Of a stretch of 64,000 nucleotides of DNA, positions 550-63,415 are shown piece after piece. Each line of letters starts with the position of its first letter. Within the stretch, counting starts at the first letter, position 1. This DNA comes from Eledone cirrhosa (taxonomy: Eukaryota), in the NCBI GenBank assembly GCA_964016885.1, contig OZ024752.1, positions 32,736,001 through 32,800,000 on the forward strand, read 5' to 3'. The translations under genes were made by a program, and so were the position numbers. The notes below the pieces were generated by a model, which was not told the origin of the DNA, did no database searches, and was given only the letters and a program-made list of their open reading frames with translations.

Positions 550-711
550 GATTTACATGCCATAAATGAAATGATCAAGAAAGTTCCTGGGAAACGGTGC
601 CTCGAAATTGAAGATGATGTTTGTCAATCTCCAGCCAAGCGCCACGAATTCGTGAGACGACTTCAGGCCGTTAACAAGGATAGACAGAAAGAACAGAATG
701 GTACAACATAG
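550..711 (+). CDS. Last coding exon of a retinoblastoma-like pocket protein (p107/p130 type)
   Basis: Polypyrimidine tract and acceptor (ttttctttctttttgtaag|GAT), then DLHAINEMIKKVPGKRCLEIEDDVCQSPAKRHEFVRRLQAVNKDRQKEQNGTT*. Matches the recalled p107/p130 C-terminal pattern L..IN.MI...KKR....D...SPAKR....RRLQ.V..DR. Too short for the ORF track. Confidence 0.85.
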   Translation, partial: DLHAINEMIKKVPGKRCLEIEDDVCQSPAKRHEFVRRLQAVNKDRQKEQNGTT

Positions 712-874: not shown

Positions 875-918
<44 letters not shown>

Positions 919-950
919 GGCTTCTATAGGACTAGAACTTTCATTCAGGA

Positions 951-1001
951 GGCTTCCTGATGATTTCTCCCGAATGAAACAGTTCTAGTTCTGTAGAAGC
1001 C
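951..1001 (+). ncRNA. Type I hammerhead ribozyme (family B)
   Basis: GGCTTC-CTGATGA-T TTC TCCC GAA T-GAAA-CAG ttctagtt CTG-TA-GAAGCC: 6-bp stem I, GUA site; covaries with the copy at 51283-51333. Confidence 0.85.
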
Positions 1002-1249
1002 ATCTCTTTCTCTCTCTCTCTCTCTCACTATATATTGTAAAGAGCATCTGCAACTCTCAAATGGGTTTCTTCAAAAATTGTTTTTATTTTTAATTAAGCA
1101 GTTGAATGTCTGAATCGAAATTTAGATATTTGAATTGCTATGAAGCAATGTAATATATGTTGAAACACGGTTTCTATATATATATATCTCTCTCTCTCTA
1201 TATATATATATAAAAAATATTATTCCAAGTAAAGAAACGTCAGTTGATC

Positions 1250-1255
1250 AATAAA
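1250..1255 (+). promoter_or_regulatory. Candidate polyadenylation signal of the pocket-protein gene
   Basis: First AATAAA downstream of the TAG at 709-711. Confidence 0.35.
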
Positions 1256-2065: not shown

Positions 2066-2240
2066 CATAATATAGAAGTTAATTCAGCAGCTGATGATCT
2101 GACTAAAGTGAAACAATTGTTCTCAGAAATGGTGAATTAACTGTTGTGGAACTTCTATCAAACTCGTCCCACCCATGGACTGAGTGCTCTACTACTACGG
2201 ATATAACCTAACAGTGTTCTACTATTATATATATATCTAT

Positions 2241-2528
2241 CTAAGGCGGGTAAAATTCCCGAGATCCATGGACGAGTTCTCTCCAGCGGTCTCTGTCCCT
2301 CATTATCGCTGCCATGTCCTGCGTCTCCAACAGACCAGTGTCTGTCCTTAGGGCATCAACATACGTTAACCTTGGTCTTCCTCTTCTAGTGTGTCCATGT
2401 AGGGGCTCCCAAAGGAGCACTGAGTGCAATGTCAACTCTGGATGTCGGTGAGCATGTCCAGCCAACCTCAGTCTCCTCTGTGTCACTTTTGAGCTGACTT
2501 TTGGGATGCTCCCATACAGCTCTGAGTT
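2241..2528 (-). mobile_element. 5'-truncated RTE-X-like LINE 3' end
   Basis: RRLRLAGHAHRH...[11 protein letters not shown]...DRDRWRELV; near-identical copies at 24781, 28943, 50919 and 61238. Confidence 0.85.
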
Positions 2529-2566
2529 TATATATATGTATATATATATATGAGATTATATATATA

Positions 2567-2997
2567 TAAGTAGAAGTGGTATTTAATTTGTTGGAAGTCC
2601 GACAAATATAAATGTTTATAACTGATTTAGAGCACTCAACAGATTACTGGAGTAAATATTCTATGATATTAAATAAATGGAAACTATATTTATAAAACCA
2701 TATTTATTTTATTTTATATATTTCAAGGGTAACCAAGACAACATTGGTACGCTTTCATCAGATAAAATACAAAGTTTGTTTTATAAATAGAGACATACCC
2801 ATGAAAATCATACCTTATCGGTTGGAAATTCACTGGATAGTGATAGGTTTGATTTTCATGGGTATGTCTCTATTTATAAAACAAACTTTGTATTTTATCT
2901 GACGAAAGCGTACCAATGTTGTCTTGGTTACCCTTGAAATATATAAAATAAAATAAATATGGTTTTATAAATATAGTTTCCATTCATTTAATATCAT
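2567..2997 (-). mobile_element. PLE-type fold-back module (family A') with two HHR-like motifs (2705-2769 -, 2891-2955 +)
   Basis: Arms of about 155 bp (2662-2820 vs 2845-2997). TATTTTAT-CTGA(T/C)GA-stem II-GAAA-TATATA-AA-ATAAAATA, i.e. cleavage U lost. Homologous to 44030-44176. Confidence 0.7.
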
Positions 2998-3056
2998 TGT
3001 ATATATATCATCATCATCATTTAACGTCCATCTTCCACGCTAGCATGGGTTAGACG

Positions 3057-3095
<39 letters not shown>

Positions 3096-3230
3096 TGTCT
3101 GTGCATATACATATATTTCTATAATCATGTCTGCTTCACACTTTTATCTCATGAAATATAAATCAGTTATAATTACTTCATATAAATTCATTTGTGAAGG
3201 ATGGCTATGGAAGGAATCCCCTCTTTGATT

Positions 3231-3267
<37 letters not shown>

Positions 3268-3374
3268 GTGTGTATGTTTCATCTAATACTCCATTATATG
3301 TTCCTGACAATAGGCTTAGGCCATGCTGGAGCACTGCCATGTTTATGTATGTTAAATAAATTTTATTTATAAAT

Positions 3375-4128
3375 ATATAATATATATATATATATGTATG
3401 TATGTATGTATATGTGTATGTATGTATATGTGTATGTATGTATATGTGTATGTATGTATATATATATGTGTATGTATGTATATATATATGTGTATGTAGG
3501 TATATATGTATATATATGTATGTATATATATATATGTATATATATGTATATATATGTATATATATGTATGTATATATATGTATATATGTATATATATGTA
3601 TATATATATATATGTATATTTATATGTATATTTATATGTATGTATATATATATGTATGTATATATATATGTATATATATATGTATGTATATATATATGTA
3701 TATATATATATGTATGTATATATGTATGTATATATATATATGTATGTATATATGTATGTATATATATATGTATATATATATGTATGTATATATATATGTA
3801 TATATATATGTATATATATATATATATGTATGTATATATGTGTATATATATATATATATATATTTATGTGTATAGTAAATATATATATATATATATATAT
3901 GTGTATAGTAAATATGTATGTATGTATGTGTATGTATGTATGTATATATATGTATGTATATATGTATATATATATGTATGTATATATATATGTATGTATA
4001 TATATATGTATGTATATATGTATGTATATATGTATGTATATATATATATATGTATGTATATATATATATATGTATGTATGTATATATGTATGTATGTATA
4101 TATGTATGTATGTATATATGTATGTATG

Positions 4129-4190
<62 letters not shown>

Positions 4191-4910
4191 TGTATGTATG
4201 TATGTATATATATATATGTATGTATGTATATATATATATATATGTATGTATATATATATATATATGTATGTATATATATATATATATATATGTATGTATA
4301 TATATATATATATATGTATGTATATATGTATGTATGTATATATATATGTGTATATATATGTATATATATATGTATATATATATGTATATATATACATATA
4401 TGTATGTATATATATATGTATATATATACATATATGTATGTATATATATATGTATATATATATGTATATATATATGTATGTATGTATGTATATATATATA
4501 TGTATATATATATGTATATATATATGTATGTATGTATGTATATATGTATGTATGTATGTATATATATATGTATGTATGTATGTATATATATATGTATGTA
4601 TGTATGTATGTATATATATATGTATGTATGTATGTATATATATATATATGTATGTATATATATGTATATATGTCTGTATGTATATATGTATGTATATATG
4701 TATGTATGTATATATGTATGTATATATGTATGTATATATATATGTATGTATATATGTATGTATGTATATATGTATGTATATATGTATGTATATATATATG
4801 TATGTATATATGTATGTATATATGTATGTATATATATATGTGTATATATATGTATATATATATGTGTATATATATGTATATATATATATGTATGTATATA
4901 TGTATGTATG

Positions 4911-4941
<31 letters not shown>

Positions 4942-4976
4942 GTATATATATATGTATATATATACATATATGTATG

Positions 4977-5007
<31 letters not shown>

Positions 5008-5172
5008 GTATATATATACATATATGTATGTATATATATATGTATATATATACATATATGTATGTATATATATATGTATATATATATGTATATATATATG
5101 TATATATATATATATATATACATATATATATGTATGTATATATATATGTATATATATATGTATATATATATG

Positions 5173-5204
<32 letters not shown>

Positions 5205-5584
5205 TGTATATGTATATATATATGTATATATATATATGTATATATATGTATATATATGTATATATATATGTATATATATATGTATATATATATGTATATA
5301 TATATGTATATATATATGTATATATATATGTATATATATATGTATATATATATGTATATATATATGTATATATATATGTATATATATATGTATATATATA
5401 TGTATATATATATGTATGTATGTATATATGTATATATATATGTATGTATGTATGTATATATATATGTATGTATGTATATATATATGTATGTATGTATATA
5501 TATATGTATGTATGTATATATATATATATATGTATGTATATATATATATGTATGTATGTATATATATATATGTATATATGTATG

Positions 5585-5627
<43 letters not shown>

Positions 5628-5628
5628 G

Positions 5629-5663
<35 letters not shown>

Positions 5664-6050
5664 GTGTATATGTATATATGTATGTATATATGTGTATATA
5701 TATATGTATATGTATATATGTATATATATATATGTATATATATATATGTATATATATATATGTATATATATATATGTATATGTATATATATGTATGTATA
5801 TGTATATATATGTATATATATATATGTATATATATATATGTATATGTATATATATGTATGTATATGTATATATATGTATGTATATATATGTATATATATG
5901 TATATATATGTATGTATATATATGTATATATATATGTATGTATATATATGTATATATATGTATGTATATATATGTATATATATGTATGTATATATGTATA
6001 TATATGTATGTATATATGTGTATATATATGTATGTATATATATATGTATG

Positions 6051-6390: not shown

Positions 6391-7956
6391 ATGTATGTAT
6401 ATGTATATATGTATGTATATATATATATATATATATGTGTGTGTATGTATATACATATATATATCTATATGTATGTATATGCATGTATATATATATATGT
6501 GTGTGTATGTATATACATATATATATATGTGTGTGTATGTATATACATATATATATGTATGTATATATATATATATATATAACATTTTTAGTGGCTAATC
6601 ATTTTGGGAAAATTTGATTCATAATTCACGGTATATTCTCTCATTTTCCAATTATTTTCTAGATATTGGTATTTAATTGGTATAAATCACTAAAATTTTG
6701 TTTATATTTCCCTCTACCCCTGCTCCCCCAAAATTGTTTTAGAATGTGTCATAAACTAAACAGTTTTCCTGTCACAGCTTTCTTTTTATTTATTTAATGG
6801 TGTTTCTTTTTAAAAATGGATGTTTTAACAAATACGTTTTTCTTTTATGAATACTTCTGACACTGCCCAGTGTTGTATATTAAATAGTTAATATTATGTT
6901 AAATTAAAATTGAAGCACCAGTTCGCATCTACACAAATACATGTAGAAACACACATATGTGGATGCACGCACATACATAATAATAATAATGAAATTATTG
7001 TGTACAGTGCTCAGGTGCACTACAACTCATCAAAGGTGCATGTATAGTACATAGAATAATGTTTGTACATGTCTAGCTTTATTCTAGCAGTAAAGGTTAC
7101 TAGTATAAACACATTTTCTATTGATTTCATATTACCACACACACACACACACACACACATACCACATCACATCCACATATATATGTCTAACTTTACCCCA
7201 TCCGTAAAAGTTATTATTTTAAACATATTTTATGTTTTCATATTAACACACACATCACACAGACACCATACAAACACCCATACGTCTAACTTCACCATAC
7301 CAGTACAAGTTACTAGTGTAAACATATTTTCTGTTTTCATATTGTTTAGTATATTTTAGTTTTAACTAAGTTTTAACTAAGTTTTAACTAAGCTTGTGCC
7401 TGCTCTAAATACCCCCTACTCCGATCCTTCTGTAAATCGAGCCTTGTTGGCATGTAATTTATATAATTCCAATATGAATTTATCATCATAAAGTGGTTGG
7501 TGATAGGAAAGGCATCCAGCCATAGAAAGCTTACCAAACAAAGGGTTGGGAGGACCCTTCAGTTGTGTCAAAGACATGACCTCCTCTCCTGTGCACCTGG
7601 TGGAGCGTTGACCATACATAAAGTAAGACACGGATCCCTGGCCTGCTTTGGAGATCAGTGGCTCCATTTTAGTACTGACTTGTTCTATGTAGACCCGTTT
7701 AACTCTTGCTGAATGATGATGATAGTTTTCTGAAAATCTGGTTCTTATTAAATCACCAAATGTAGTCAGTCATGTCACATCACTGTTACTATGTTACTAT
7801 ATGACTGTTGTAATATTGTGTAATTGTAGAATTAGTTATAGTAGTAGTGGTGGTAGTAGTTATTAGTATAATAGCTGAGTTCTTTCAGTCTCTTTCTTAG
7901 CTTGTTTTTTGGTCAAAGCAGAGTTGAATTTCCTATCATGGTTTCATAGGACTTGC

Positions 7957-12551: not shown

Positions 12552-12772
12552 ATAGGAACGAGTAGGACCCCGACGGCTGAGCTCAAGCCGTTTCGATGGC
12601 TAATTCTGGACTCATGTACATCAACACTCATCATTAGTCCAGAATTATCCGTCGAAACGGCTTGAGCTCAGCCGTCGGGGGTCCTACTTGTTCCTATTAC
12701 CCACTCTACTACCCTAAGTATTGAGTACTTGGGTGCGTTATGGTCCATCTGGTTCCTTACCACATTTCCTTC

Positions 12773-19111: not shown

Positions 19112-19920
19112 TACATGGAGATATACCTCACCCTACGTCGTTAATTGGTTCCAGAAGTCAAGACTGAAGTCGAGAAATCGATAACTGTCAAATTAACCCC
19201 CGCTCCCTATAAACCCCTAACAGACCTACCCAGTTCTGTACTTTAACGTACAATATACACTACAGTATAAGTACAGTAATATTTATATTTATGTATGTAT
19301 TTTAAATAAGACATCGAATATACCATTTAAATATGAACATCAAAAGACAGGTAAATAAGACAACGCCACTATATATATATATATATATAGGAAAATGTTT
19401 AACCCTGACGGCAAAGCTCAAGCCGTTTCGACGGGTATTTCTGGAATGGAAATAACCGTCCAGAAATAGCATTCGAAACGGCTTGAGCTCTGCCGTCGAG
19501 GTTAAACATTTTCCTATTACCCACTCTACTACTATAAGTATTGAGTACTATGGTGCGTTATGGTCCATCTGGTTCCTTACCACACTTCCTTCGTTATATA
19601 TATATATATATATATATAACGAAGGAAATGTGGTAAGGAACCAGGTGGACCATAACGCACCAAAGTACTCAATACTTGAGGTAGTAGAGTGGGTAATAGG
19701 AACCAGTAAGACCCCGACAGCTGAGCTCAAGCCGTTTCGACGGCTATAGTAAGAAGCAAAGAAATTTTCAGTGATACGGAAAGTTCAGGTAAACTCCGGG
19801 TGTATATCCAGTTTCAGGGTGAAAATCCAACAAATTTGCGTTAACCTAATATATTCTTTCCATATAATGTCTGGAGTGTGTTGATATTTCTGTTTACCTT
19901 CTACACATACACACACACAT

Positions 19921-22974: not shown

Positions 22975-23699
22975 CTTGTATATATATATATATATATAGT
23001 AACCAGGATACGGCAATAAATCTCTTATGTAACACCTCCATTTTGTTCTTATTATATACACTCTGCTCTGCACCGAAGGTTGACCTTGGTACTCTCACCA
23101 GTTTTCTTCGTACTTACTGAACCTTCTGCGCATATATATATATGTAACCATAATATATATTTTATGGTTATATATATATTGCGTTTCGCTTTGTTTTTTT
23201 GCCACTGCCGAAATTCGATCGCGCTGAAATTATATATATATATAATTTCAGCGAGATCGAATTTCGGCAGTGGTCAAAAGCAAAGCGAAACGCAATTTTC
23301 GAGATATGCGGCAAGCGCTCAATGGACTAAAAGAAGACCAGAGCAATAAACATAGGTTATAGAGGCCAAACAAACTGAAAACGGCGAAGATGTAGCTGCC
23401 ACATAGTAGGTACTATTTGATTTATATATTATTTTGTTTTTAAATGATTTTATACATTATTTTATGTTGTATATTTTAACAATTATTTAAATATATTTAA
23501 TATAATTTTTATGGTTTATTATTTTTGTCAGACCGACGTAAAGTTGAGTCAGTCAACGTAACATGGGGTTTATTCTTGCTGCGGAATATTAAGAAAAGAC
23601 CGCCGTAACTTTGAAAATGACGAAACTGGAAACGACGTAAACCGAAATCTCTCTCTCTATATATATATATACATACACATATATATATACATACACACA

Positions 23700-24530: not shown

Positions 24531-24780
24531 GATAAATCTACCAAAATATACGGTAGAGTGTCTAATACGTATGAAGAACTCAATGTAATCCAAATATCAT
24601 GAAAACAGAAGATGTATTCAAAAATTTTTCGATGAAAATCACAGGAAAACAGAGTCAAGATAAATTAATAAAAACAACGAATAAAAACGAAGAACAAGTT
24701 CCTTATATGAAACATTTTTTTAATATAAGGAACTTGTTCTTTGTTTTTATTCGTTGTTTTTATTAATTTATATCTATCTA

Positions 24781-25928: not shown

Positions 25929-27976
25929 TCAAATCAAGCCAGGTTTGTATTTCGAGAACGTAGCCTTGAGTCTGTGATTGCAATATAGAGTCCTTTCCGT
26001 TCTGTTGTTGAGAAGAGTATAATTGGATTTTAGTATGTAAAATAGCTCCATATTGCATAATCGGCAGTAAGGCTGGCCTGCACGATATGCGGAAGCACTA
26101 GAGAGTTTTGTCCATTTCAAAGTGTATTGCAGGTTACTTTCGCGCAACTGCCAAATTGTATTGGCTAAGGTAGTTACGGAACGGTATTTGATGTTCTTCA
26201 TCGAACTACGGTGTTGGTACCAACGAGATTTAAAAGTGGTAGAGGTACAGCCGATATAGTGCCATCTTCGGTTATCCGATTCAACAGTGCATTGATACAC
26301 CATATTGGATTCCATGCATTTGTTATTCAGAAGGCAACGATCAGGTAGGTTGCAGTTGCATTTATCAGCTCTTGTAGTATTATTATCTTGTACAGGTTGC
26401 GTAAGGTTTATATGTGTGTCTGCTGCAGGAGGGTTTACATTCAGTGGTTGAGAGTTTGAGGAAGTGTTAATGTAGTTTGGGGTGCTTCGTGTGGATGTGC
26501 TGACTAATCGTTTGGAGTTAATAATTAGATCGAGATTGGGTGCTGTAGAATATGAAAGCTTAATGGACCTTAGATTTAGTATCTTAGCGTATCGATGTGT
26601 AGGAGGAAAATGTGTTTTGATTAAATTGAAGAAAAGTGAGGAAATTTTAGGAGATGTTGAGGCATTGTATATTGGGTTGTACCAAAGGTAGTTACGATTC
26701 CGCTTTCTAGCTAGGTTGGGTTGTGTTCTTCTATTTCGACTATGCCTATGCGGAAGGTGTATGTTGTGTATCGTACCTATATTATTATTTATGCAAGTGC
26801 GTTGTGAGCCCTTATTTCTATATTGGTGTGCTGGATCTATGTACTCTATTTTGTCTTGGTATCCAGCCGCCTTAAGCGCGTTGTTATAGTAGTAAGCGTG
26901 CTCACTAAAGACCTGGGGGGTAGATGACAGGCGTGATATTCTAAGGGAGATGGCCCGAGGGATAGACCGTATAACCGAGGGTGGATGATTAGATTTATGG
27001 TCAACATACATAATATTTTCATTAGATTTATGGAATGGGCGGATTTCCCCCGTCTCTAGATTAAATGTTACATCCAAGAAATTTGTTTCAGTCAGGTTGT
27101 ACTCAAAAGTAATGCTAAAACCTAGACTGTTTAAAAATTCGCTAACTTGCTTACGTAATCTTTCTATTTTCTGGTTGTTTAGGTGTTTAGCTAAAAGGAG
27201 CGCATCGTCGCGGTAAATACCCCTTTGTAGATTGCGGAATTTTTTCTCTAGTGCTTGAGCGATGAAGATGCCCACTACGTCTGTAACTTCGGCAGAATCG
27301 TTTGAGCCCATCGTGATATCAAAGAAAGATGGTCTATCTTTGCGCACCCAGTAGCTATCATCGAACTTAATTATGGTCTTTCTGGCCTCAAGGATGATGC
27401 CTATTTCCGCGTCGGTTAGGTCAGAATTCTTTCCGGCAAACAGCAGGGTCTTATGTAGGGTATCGGGTGATATGGAGGAGTAGTAGTCGTTTATGTCGAA
27501 TTGGATAAATTTTGATTCATCTCTATCCTTGATATTACTAAACCAACATATCGCCTCCTCAGTATTTGCCCAGAGTTTTATGCCAGTTATCCGTTTTAAC
27601 TGGGGGATTACTCTATCTAATATATATTTACTTACTCTACCTATATCCGATTTCGATCGGCATATTAGTCTAATCTGGGGGTTTGCATGGAAATTGACTT
27701 TGTGGTCCTTTAAATTAAAGGATGAGGTCGCTGGAATTATTGGTTCTGTCCTGTCATCTATACCTAGGTTCTTAACTATTTTGTGTGCCTCATTGTTAAT
27801 ATGTACAAGAGTAGATTTACCTGTTTTTTTGTACTTCTTGTGTAGTTCAGTACGGATGAGGTTATTATAGGTGTTTACATCTAGGGTGTACACGTTGGAT
27901 GTTTTATCGGCCTTAATGATAATCCCACTGGTATTATTAAGTTTGTGGACCAGGGCTTTGATGTTCTTTTGTAGTG

Positions 27977-30897: not shown

Positions 30898-31318
30898 AGT
30901 TATACTTGGGGAGGGTCATATTTGTGTAATATTGCCAGAATTAATAACAGAACACACTCACTGTTTGGTTGGTTTTCGCTTCTCGCTGTCTTTTATATCG
31001 GTAATCTAACTTACTCGGTCCTCAATGTTGCCATTGACTGACCGACGGTCAAAAATAATACAGATACAATATAGACACAAACACATATATATAGTTTATC
31101 ATAAATCTTTCGTTGCACATCTGCAACATCGTCAGTGGTGTTATATTTTCCTCCTGTTGTGTTGTATGTCTACGCCATTTTTATTCAGTCTGTCTATAGT
31201 GTGTTCTGTTATTAATTCTGGCAATATTACACAAATATGACCCTCCCCAAGTATAACAATATTTGTTTCGACACACGATTTCATATAAAAAACCTCGCAA
31301 AACTAATTCATCGCCGCT
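30898..31318. mobile_element. PLE 3'UTR module (family E) with inverted ends; HHR at 31100-31137 (-)
   Basis: Reverse complement of 60475-60797; 30900-30955 inverted at 31201-31256; CA-CTGACGA-T GTTGCA GATG TGCAAC-GAAA-GATT-TA-TG. Confidence 0.75.
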
Positions 31319-51282: not shown

Positions 51283-51333
51283 AGATTCTACAGGACTAGA
51301 ACTGTTTCATTCTTTAGAAATCATCAGGAATCT
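51283..51333 (-). ncRNA. Type I hammerhead (family B) in a PLE-type 3' module (51199-51842)
   Basis: AGATTC-CTGATGA-T TTC TAAA GAA T-GAAA-CAG ttctagtc CTG-TA-GAATCT. Confidence 0.87.
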
Positions 51334-53614: not shown

Positions 53615-53623
<9 letters not shown>

Positions 53624-53925
53624 TAAAATAACAGATTAAAGTTTAAGCAAAGAATCGCTGCTTTCACCCTTAACGGGATCTTCTGAAACTAACAAAGTCA
53701 ATCTGTAAACGCACCCGTCTTCCTCCGGTTGCAACGTTTTTTGAAATATCCACTTCTGCGTTTACAGATTGACTTTGTTAGTTTCAGAAGATCCCGTTAA
53801 GGGTGAAAGCAGCGATTCTTTGCTTAAACTTTAATCTGTTATTTTAATAAATATTTGCTCTACGGTTCTTATATATTTGATATATATTTTCCTTATCGAG
53901 CCCTCTTTGGATTTTAGTCTTCAAT
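53615..53925 (+). mobile_element. PLE fold-back module (family H) with variant HHRs at 53640-53690 (-) and 53780-53830 (+)
   Basis: AGTTT-CAGAAGA-T CCC GTTAA GGG T-GAAA-GCAG cgattct TTGC-TT-AAACT. Confidence 0.7.
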
Positions 53926-55010: not shown

Positions 55011-56089
55011 AGGATTAGAATACTGGAGCGTGTTGGAGTTAAACACCCTCTTCGTATTATAGAAATGACAGTAAAAGGTATAGCTCAATGCAGTTAAACA
55101 GAGCCAAAAAATTAAGAGAGTAAAACAAAGAATCCTTTAATACATCAAAAGTTTTTATTAGCCGACAATGTTTCGTCCTATTAAGGACTCATCAGGGAAA
55201 TCAAAACAACAAGAAGTAATATCGGCAGATACAAGCCGGAAGCTCCGAAGAATATGGAGTGTACATACACTAAAGTCTTGCAAAAATATATGATAATAAA
55301 AATAAAAATAAAAATAATAAAAAATATATAATAAGAATAACTAAGGATGTATATAACATTAAGAACCATATTACAAATATAGTCCAAAGCAACTAACCTA
55401 AATCTAAACAAAGGTGGTTATATAGAGCAGGAATTATATATAACACAATGTAATATAACATAATACATTATAATAATATACCTTTACCAACATTAAAATT
55501 ACAATTAAAAATCAAAAGGTACAATATATACATGTATATATGTGCGCACACACACACACACACACACACATATAAGGCCTAATAAGGCTTAATTTGTGTA
55601 GTTGAACATAGATGTGCGTATTGTTATATATATGTGTGTGTGTGTGTGTGTGCGCGCACATATATACATGTATATATTGTACCTTTTGATTTTTAATTGT
55701 AATTTTAATGTTGGTAAAGGTATATTATTATAATGTATTATGTTATATTACATTGTGTTATATATAATTCCTGCTCTATATAACCACATTTGTTTAGCTC
55801 TAGGTTAGTTGCTTTGGACTATATTTGTAATATGGTTCTTAATGTTATATACATCCTTAGTTATTCTTATTATATATTTTTATTATTTTTATTTTTATTT
55901 TTATTATCATATATTTTTGCAAGACTTTAGTGTATGTACACTCCATATTCTTCGGAGCTTCCGGCTTGTATCTGCCGATATTACTTCTTGTTGTTTTGAT
56001 TTCCCTGATGAGTCCTTAATGGGACGAAACATTGTCGGCTAATAAAAACTTTTGATGTATTAAAGGATTCTTTGTTTTACTCTCTTAAT
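55011..56089. mobile_element. Large PLE-type fold-back (family F) with HHRs at 55157-55202 (-) and 55998-56044 (+)
   Basis: Arms of about 460 bp; CC-CTGATGA-GTCCT TAAT (A/G)GGAC-GAAA-CATTG-TC-GG. Confidence 0.8.
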
Positions 56090-63049: not shown

Positions 63050-63415
63050 CTATCCGTTAGGGTATAATGTGGGGCTGTAATACAGGAAAGTTTTGTTCAA
63101 TTTATGTTTACAAGCCGAAATTGCCTCAGATTATTTGTTTAAGATGTGGTCTTTGGCGTAGAGTATTTCCAGGGCTTCAGCGGCGCAGAGGTCACATGGT
63201 CTTTTATTTCCGTTTTGCGTTCTAGCTGTAGCTAGGATTTCCCAGTGTAACTTATATTGGGTGTGGTTGTCTTTTAGATTCCAGATATAAGCTTAAAGTG
63301 ACGTCATATTCCTTCTTAAAGTGTTAAGAAAAGAATGGGAATGCATGTAAAGACGCTGCTTGAATCTATTGGCGGTTAACCCTATGTTGACCCTACATGA
63401 TGTGGGTGTATCAAC
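63050..63415 (-). pseudogene. PLE GIY-YIG C-terminus with two in-frame TAA stops; 3'UTR runs to about 61972 with a variant HHR at 62067-62125
   Basis: Hand translation RVNIGLTANRFKQRLYMHSHSF...TSL*AYIWNLKDNHTQYKLHWEIL...CDLCAAEALEIL...ILNK*SE...CKHK aligns with the C-terminus of the 25929 ORF. Confidence 0.85.

Follow-up and report, generated by a model that had tools for sequence, protein, structure and literature searches.

A hammerhead motif joined to its own inverted copy behind an RBL1/RBL2-like gene of Eledone cirrhosa: a probable head-to-head insertion of a Penelope-like element end

Shortly after the stop codon of a retinoblastoma-like gene of Eledone cirrhosa lies a sequence with the core of a hammerhead ribozyme, immediately preceded by an inverted copy of part of itself. 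An earlier note on this DNA had read the arrangement as an on/off fold controlling a cell-cycle mRNA, in which the cell would toggle between hairpin and hammerhead and thereby cut the poly(A) tail off a p107/p130-like transcript; as a fallback, it had allowed for a neutral insertion that the gene tolerates since the ribozyme is blocked. Which of these readings fits is the question addressed here, in the analyzed 64,000-nt stretch of DNA (the window) and in the genome around it. The features concerned are listed in Table 1.

Table 1. Features of the window that bear on the hammerhead motif
Feature	Position	Strand	Basis or remark
Last coding exon, RBL1/RBL2 (p107/p130)-like pocket-protein gene	550..711	+	Stop 709-711; octopod protein matches
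(AT)n run adjoining the insertion	879..914	.	Sequence; likely target site
Inverted, 5'-truncated second copy of the element end	917..951	-	Alignment to natural copy L032
Sense copy of the family A end (pLTR of a Hydra-clade Penelope-like element)	951..1007	+	Alignment to L032
Type I hammerhead motif	951..1001	+	Core, three stems; presumed cut 995/996
(CT)n run at the 3' end of the sense copy	1004..1027	.	Similar runs after other copies
First AATAAA after the stop	1250..1255	+	Candidate poly(A) signal
Family B hammerhead with upstream pLTR and tail	51283..51333	-	Same window; sister core found at 51327

Host gene and site of the insertion

The assignment to a p107/p130-like gene, made earlier from the letters, is borne out by protein matches. 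The peptide of the last exon matches the C-termini of octopod retinoblastoma-like (RBL1/RBL2-like) proteins at 87-88% identity, the upstream exons map in order over ~43 kb of neighbouring genome sequence, and an RB_B domain match lies 6.4 kb upstream of the window. The placement of the motif also proved correct: the hammerhead begins 240 nt past the stop and ahead of the first AATAAA. A sequence scan from the stop to 1250 found neither AATAAA nor ATTAAA, and a GU-rich stretch follows 1250; we infer that the hammerhead would lie in the 3' untranslated region (3'UTR) of the RBL1/RBL2-like mRNA.

The element might also sit beyond the main poly(A) site and be absent from the mature mRNA, which would be compatible with the reading of the locus that we prefer below. 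Weaker variants of the poly(A) signal occur at 912, 973, 1152, 1209, 1228, and 1232, the first being a TATAAA just ahead of the arm, and the 3'UTRs of Octopus vulgaris have a median length of 350-380 nt (PMC9699675, in the parts used here), so that an mRNA ending before +206 would not be rare. Set against the lack of AATAAA and ATTAAA up to 1250 and the GU-rich stretch after it, this arrangement seems unlikely to us.

The (AT)n run is likely the target site of the insertion, and the (CT)n run likely expanded inside the end of the element; (CT)n-like runs also follow other copies (e.g., L046, L053, and L079). Both ends of the insertion sit in microsatellite, and no target-site duplication is readable.

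The hammerhead motif, its inverted arm, and their families

All elements of the hammerhead consensus, namely, the CUGANGA, GAAA, and NUH core and three stems, are present at 951-1001. Stem I pairs GGCUUC (951-956) with GAAGCC (996-1001). The core CUGAUGA (957-963) is followed by U964 and by a 3-bp stem II (UUC/GAA, 965-967 with 972-974; loop UCCC), and U975 and GAAA (976-979) lead into a 4-bp stem III (ACAG/CUGU, 979-982 with 991-994), whose 8-nt loop is centred on CUAG. Cleavage is presumed to follow A995. In the customary hammerhead position numbering, positions 10.1 and 11.1 carry U.U rather than G-C, as is the case in 121 of the 123 family motifs that passed the stem filter. We take U.U to be a clade trait rather than a sign of decay because it is also the commonest state in the published hammerheads of the Hydra clade of Penelope-like elements (PLEs): by our own count in File S2 of PMC8557442, the layout CUGANGA-U...U-GAA occurs in 14 of 25 Hydra families, and four families have the same ACAG/CUGU stem III. 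The description of the motif as an intact hammerhead calls for some caveats: Rfam returns no hammerhead match at 951-1001, at the gathering score or at E values up to 10; the G10.1-C11.1 pair is missing; and stem II is short.

Taken alone, the hammerhead folds no better than shuffled sequences (z = -1.3). That the family has a real hammerhead fold is supported by the published U.U layout and by two compensatory, double-sided changes in stem I between family A, to which the motif belongs, and its sister family B (100% of cells paired, although in effect this is a single subfamily contrast). Loop II is the other difference between the two families. The palindromic CUAG centre of loop III (983-990) could allow two copies to pair as a dimer; dimer pairing has been proposed for other PLE hammerheads.

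Both families are abundant. A genome search with 915-1005 yielded 2,066 candidates at first look; 40 of these were scored. The 32-nt core of family A occurs exactly 1,477 times in the genome and that of family B 10,296 times (reversed controls, 0 in each case), the two arms of one pair being counted separately. Together these amount to about one core match per 250 kb, and if 3'UTRs are assumed to make up 0.3-0.5% of the genome, some 40-60 core matches would be expected in 3'UTRs by chance. Of 54 sampled copies, 46 have a microsatellite in the 200 nt that follow them, and family copies are found inserted into (TA)n. The strands are unevenly represented in family B (6,426 forward versus 3,870 reverse matches), which may point to large tandem arrays somewhere, whereas family A is balanced (755 versus 722). 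A further hammerhead variant, at L178 and L195, has stem I AGCUUC/GAAGCU, a CUGAAGA core, and loop II AUCU, and keeps both U.U and the CUAG-centred loop III.

Alignment to the natural copy L032 agrees with the original observation that 917-951 is an imperfect inverted copy of the part of the hammerhead from stem II to stem I'. The arm is the reverse complement of family sequence, running from loop II outward past stem I' with two substitutions and a 2-nt deletion over 37 nt, and it shares base 951 with the sense copy. The latter is identical to L032 at 55 of 57 positions, and its first base is also that of stem I; it has neither tail nor promoter. Homology to long copies ends 6 nt upstream of hammerhead base C3. 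The changes in both copies look as would be expected from ordinary decay.

Arms of this kind are not peculiar to the RBL-like gene. Three other loci, on contigs C3, C15, and C17 and unrelated in their flanks, have the same arm junction, and an adjacent inverted arm accompanies 23 of 54 insertions (13/28 in family A and 10/26 in family B), sampled as the first 30 core matches per family along contig C1 minus six second-arm or duplicate rows. Because of this frequency and this recurrence, we read the arm as the usual insertion product of the family and not as a purpose-built blocker.

Lock or switch

According to computed energies, which concern secondary structure only, 917-1003 folds into one hairpin of -51.1 kcal/mol (z = -10.7; none of 200 shuffles was as good). 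The ribozyme fold lies 2.0 kcal/mol above the ensemble when the hammerhead is taken alone (P = 0.04) and 38 kcal/mol above it when the arm is included (P ~1e-27); in the longer stretch 712-1300, the distances are 4.7 kcal/mol without and 33 kcal/mol with the arm. The arm is also transcribed first, and in a transcript prefix ending at 962 the CUGA core is already paired with it. On account of this order and of the ~38 kcal/mol penalty, we predict that the arm traps the ribozyme in an inactive hairpin, i.e., acts as a lock and not as a switch. The ribozyme fold is similarly displaced, by +33 to +70 kcal/mol (95-nt context), in each of the 15 family-A rows that have an arm next to them; the RBL-like gene is thus not exceptional in having a blocked copy.

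These results leave very little room for the regulatory switch. Its attraction lies in an intact core in sense orientation between the stop and the first AATAAA, and in a ribozyme fold that comes within 2.0-4.7 kcal/mol of the ensemble once the arm is removed. The arm, however, is a routine product of insertion, it pairs with the CUGA core before the rest of the motif exists, and the resulting gap of 38 kcal/mol would have to be overcome. Moreover, PLE hammerheads of metazoans showed weak cleavage in vitro (PMC4209133) or, in Anolis, cut only with the element's protein present (PMC11167929), insofar as the parts of these papers used here describe them. Editing is a doubtful way out, as changing enough adenosines to open the stem would presumably also strike the GAAA core. 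We therefore give the proposal that this fold controls a cell-cycle mRNA next to no credence.

The precedent that had been cited for it, the 3'UTR hammerheads of Clec2 genes, carries over only in part. The Eledone motif resembles them in being a hammerhead in sense orientation in a probable 3'UTR. As summarized in the relevant part of a review (PMC2950038), however, the Clec2 ribozymes are discontinuous, recur in the homologues of several mammals, and reduced reporter output by 80%, whereas the Eledone motif is the end of a high-copy retroelement paired with its own antisense.

Another alternative accepts the same origin and supposes that the hairpin acts on the host as double-stranded RNA (dsRNA), with ADAR editing or small RNAs altering the stability of the mRNA. 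In animals, RNA editing acts mainly on repeat-derived dsRNA, and the hairpin, with a stem of ~28 pairs, is very stable. Many similar hairpins exist genome-wide, however, and nothing marks this one as selected; the changes in the arm are C-to-T and G-to-A substitutions and a deletion; and the arm motifs have no match in the small supplementary files of an octopus microRNA paper (PMC9699675). We consider a role of this kind quite improbable. A microRNA precursor likewise finds no support: Rfam gave only sub-threshold miRNA scores, and the same small supplements contain no match.

We regard it as very probable that 917-1007 is a short head-to-head insertion of the end of a high-copy repeat, one with a Hydra-clade PLE in its sister family, likely in (AT)n, in which the ribozyme is predicted to be locked and which is likely tolerated because of that predicted lock. 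Of the earlier interpretation, the neutral, blocked insertion is supported by the routine arm, the recurring junction, and the predicted lock, its neutrality being inferred, and the built-in regulatory switch is not. The origin of the motif is thus of a known kind and a regulatory role is unlikely, which removes a false candidate riboswitch. It further suggests that genic hammerhead-plus-antisense hairpins of cephalopods should be read first as Penelope-like insertion junctions.

The parent element and a possible route to inverted ends

Copies with coding capacity were found in family B. At L155 and L182, a family B hammerhead is followed by an RT frame, and among the 30 best genome matches to the N-terminus of that frame, the hammerhead lies 177-178 nt upstream of the ATG at 25 loci. 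Many of these 30 loci hold open frames of ~758 codons; the product has 712 aa. Locus L246 contains, in order, an inverted hammerhead copy with tail, a hammerhead at 2107, an open frame at 2147-4423 (758 codons), a second hammerhead at 6904, and (TA)n. The two hammerheads are 4,797 nt apart, and the 2.5-kb 3' region between the ORF and the second of them is 62% TA/TG microsatellite. Since this region intervenes, a second hammerhead was found within ~1.5 kb downstream of the ORF end at only 1 of 29 loci (one short locus was skipped). Young Hydra-type elements with open 758-codon frames and a 3' region of ~2.5 kb, a length taken from L246, are also seen across L244 to L247 (contigs C9, C2, and C1), and short anchor words are common to the 3' regions of these copies. 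Through this microsatellite-rich region, the element may spread TA/TG repeats through the genome.

The pLTR-ORF-pLTR partial tandem with a hammerhead in the pLTR is accordingly documented for family B (L246 and the 25 of 30 loci), and for family A by the degraded locus L114 only, in which an A-type end is followed by the start of such an ORF. The search turned up no intact ORF in any family-A copy, and none of 20 tail-selected family-A loci continues into an ORF; this may be an older family or a largely non-autonomous one. The peptide HPLAEHFN of upstream copies was tried as a GIY-YIG remnant and dropped, as it has no counterpart in the intact ORF.

The 712-aa protein contains RWR at 37, DKT at 115, YRDD, CNCLNKEAC (CxCX5C) at 565, IVY..YIG at 584-603, CDLC (CxxC) at 665, and CMH (CxH) at 693. 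DKG and GxKF/Y are absent from it, and two cysteines stand between IVY and YIG, not in CxxC spacing; there is no CCHH motif. Pfam gives GIY-YIG at E = 0.012 and no RVT_1 match, and searches of solved structures with this protein, profile searches included, returned nothing significant. The Hydra clade of C-terminal EN+ PLEs (Craig et al. 2021, PMC8557442), which includes Hydra-1_Obim from Octopus bimaculoides and Penelope-13_HM, is described in the parts of that paper used here as having an RWK motif, DKT for DKG, no GxKF/Y, a CxCX5C linker, a C-terminal GIY-YIG without CCHH, CxxC and CxH motifs, (TA)n as preferred target, and a length generally below 3 kb. RWK is the commonest state in the published 56-row alignment where the Eledone protein has RWR. 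Judged by these motifs and by comparison with that alignment by eye, the parent element matches the description of the Hydra clade.

The likeness to that clade extends from the diagnostic ORF motifs to the (TA)n targets and the hammerhead in the pLTR. Penelope-13_HM moreover has an inverted 5'-truncated copy with hammerheads on both strands (PMC8557442, as far as covered here). The Eledone element differs in several respects: its unit reaches ~4.8 kb owing to the 2.5-kb 3' region, the ORF being of the usual size; stem II has 3 bp and loop III 8 nt; the tail is ~70 nt and not 30-40 nt; and Hydra-1_Obim, with another hammerhead, belongs to another family. Non-LTR retrozymes, which are likewise short, non-coding, PLE pLTR-related sequences with type I hammerheads, form head-to-tail tandem arrays according to the available part of a preprint (bioRxiv 10.64898/2026.07.22.740005), in contrast to the single head-to-head pair at 917-1007.

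The 5' boundary of the insertions is sharp at the ribozyme. In 37 of 54 insertions, homology to long copies extends no more than 6 nt upstream of C3 (0-6 nt), and 15 of them reach exactly 6 nt, where stem I begins; one insertion stops at 7-12 nt, and 16 run further. This measure is ungapped, and five of the 54 insertions served as rulers. Of 84 matches in long copies that have the motif (overlapping loci not being fully collapsed), 60 show a TATA box whose first base is 30 nt ahead of stem I. In another 13, which form a subfamily with one extra stem base, the distance to the six-base window is 31 nt; the spacing stays at 30 nt in two families with diverged spacers. A distance of ~30 nt is usual between a TATA box and a transcription start. 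By eye, another hammerhead family in the window has no TATA at -30. Of 23 inverted pairs, 20 have a single tailed arm and three have none; no pair has two tailed arms.

A precedent for how such ends might form is PAc, a Poseidon-clade element of Anolis (Frangieh et al. 2024, PMC11167929), whose purified protein, in the experiments considered here, extends both strands and uses uncut RNA; reverse transcription starts at two internal sites bracketing the tail, both strands are nicked, and targets are AT-rich. The Eledone copies likewise have AT-rich targets, and none of 20 tail-selected copies begins at the cut site, in keeping with an uncut template; internal starts bracketing the tail and the nicking and extension of both strands would also be shared. 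PAc belongs to another clade, and its ORF begins inside the hammerhead, whereas the Eledone ATG lies 178 nt past the core.

Based on the 5'-end, TATA, tail, and cut-site data together with the Anolis results, the simplest model is that of two short cDNAs. The RNA of the element would begin with the first base of stem I, 30 nt downstream of the TATA box; reverse transcription would start at two internal sites, ~60 and ~135 nt downstream, with both nicked strands of the (TA)n target priming cDNA; and the two short cDNAs would run to the 5' end of the RNA and be joined head to head by microhomology. Such cDNAs are analogous to strong-stop DNA. The joining would disable the ribozyme in each such copy on landing, and the ribozyme would serve the parent element and not the host gene. 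We put forward only tentatively that the TATA box sets the RNA start at the hammerhead and that the short palindromes are paired, strong-stop-like cDNAs joined head to head. The 5' ends of the tail-selected copies are spread (9/20 at +2 to +17 and 4/20 at -1 to -6) and are thus less sharp than a pure start-site model predicts. Of 15 copies, 12 carry an extra G, the signature of cap copying, but in most of these the G could have come from the partner arm. Our literature search on the TATA box and the start site, which covered subscription journals thinly, gave one general paper and none that combined all of its terms.

The arm could alternatively arise by fold-back self-priming of a single cDNA once stem I has been copied, in which case the pile-up of 5' ends would reflect folding of the cDNA rather than a transcription start; the folded cDNA would leave its template and prime on itself. 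At the stop point, stem I can indeed form for the first time within the cDNA itself, and many junctions are mini-hairpins with a loop of 3-4 nt (e.g., L121, L127, L132, and L139). Yet armless copies also begin at stem I (e.g., L131, L140, L160, and L163), the TATA spacing holds at 30 nt in two families despite their diverged spacers, and the arms in the window begin at different positions (-6 and +10). Fold-back appears to us possible, if rather doubtful. Should the joining of two short cDNAs prove true, one testable mechanism would account for the inverted ends of Penelope elements, their one-sided tails, and their tolerated genic insertions. This Hydra-clade family is young, high in copy number, and rich in open 758-codon frames; its 5' boundary coincides sharply with the ribozyme, and its tails are one-sided. 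These traits make it valuable as a natural system for studying how PLEs make inverted ends and what their hammerheads do.

The window holds further repeats. Head-to-head repeats flanked by (TA)n lie at 47-344, 2653-3007, 12552-12697, 19387-19747, 23178-23296, 24660-24771, and 53616-53854, and one such repeat lies inside the last intron of the RBL-like gene; these are likely insertions of the same kind from other families. An inverted pair at 55157-55201 (-) and ~56005 (+) belongs to a hammerhead family of the canonical G-C type, and its minus copy is the only Rfam hit in the window. Two copies of another repeat, at 31135 (-) and 60544 (+), combine a CUGACGA...GAAA core with a long stem II. Degraded ORFs at 25935-27974 (-) and 63053-63385 (-) are 38% and 49% identical to the Hydra-type protein, and a simple repeat with a GC skew of 0.94 occupies 4001-6000.
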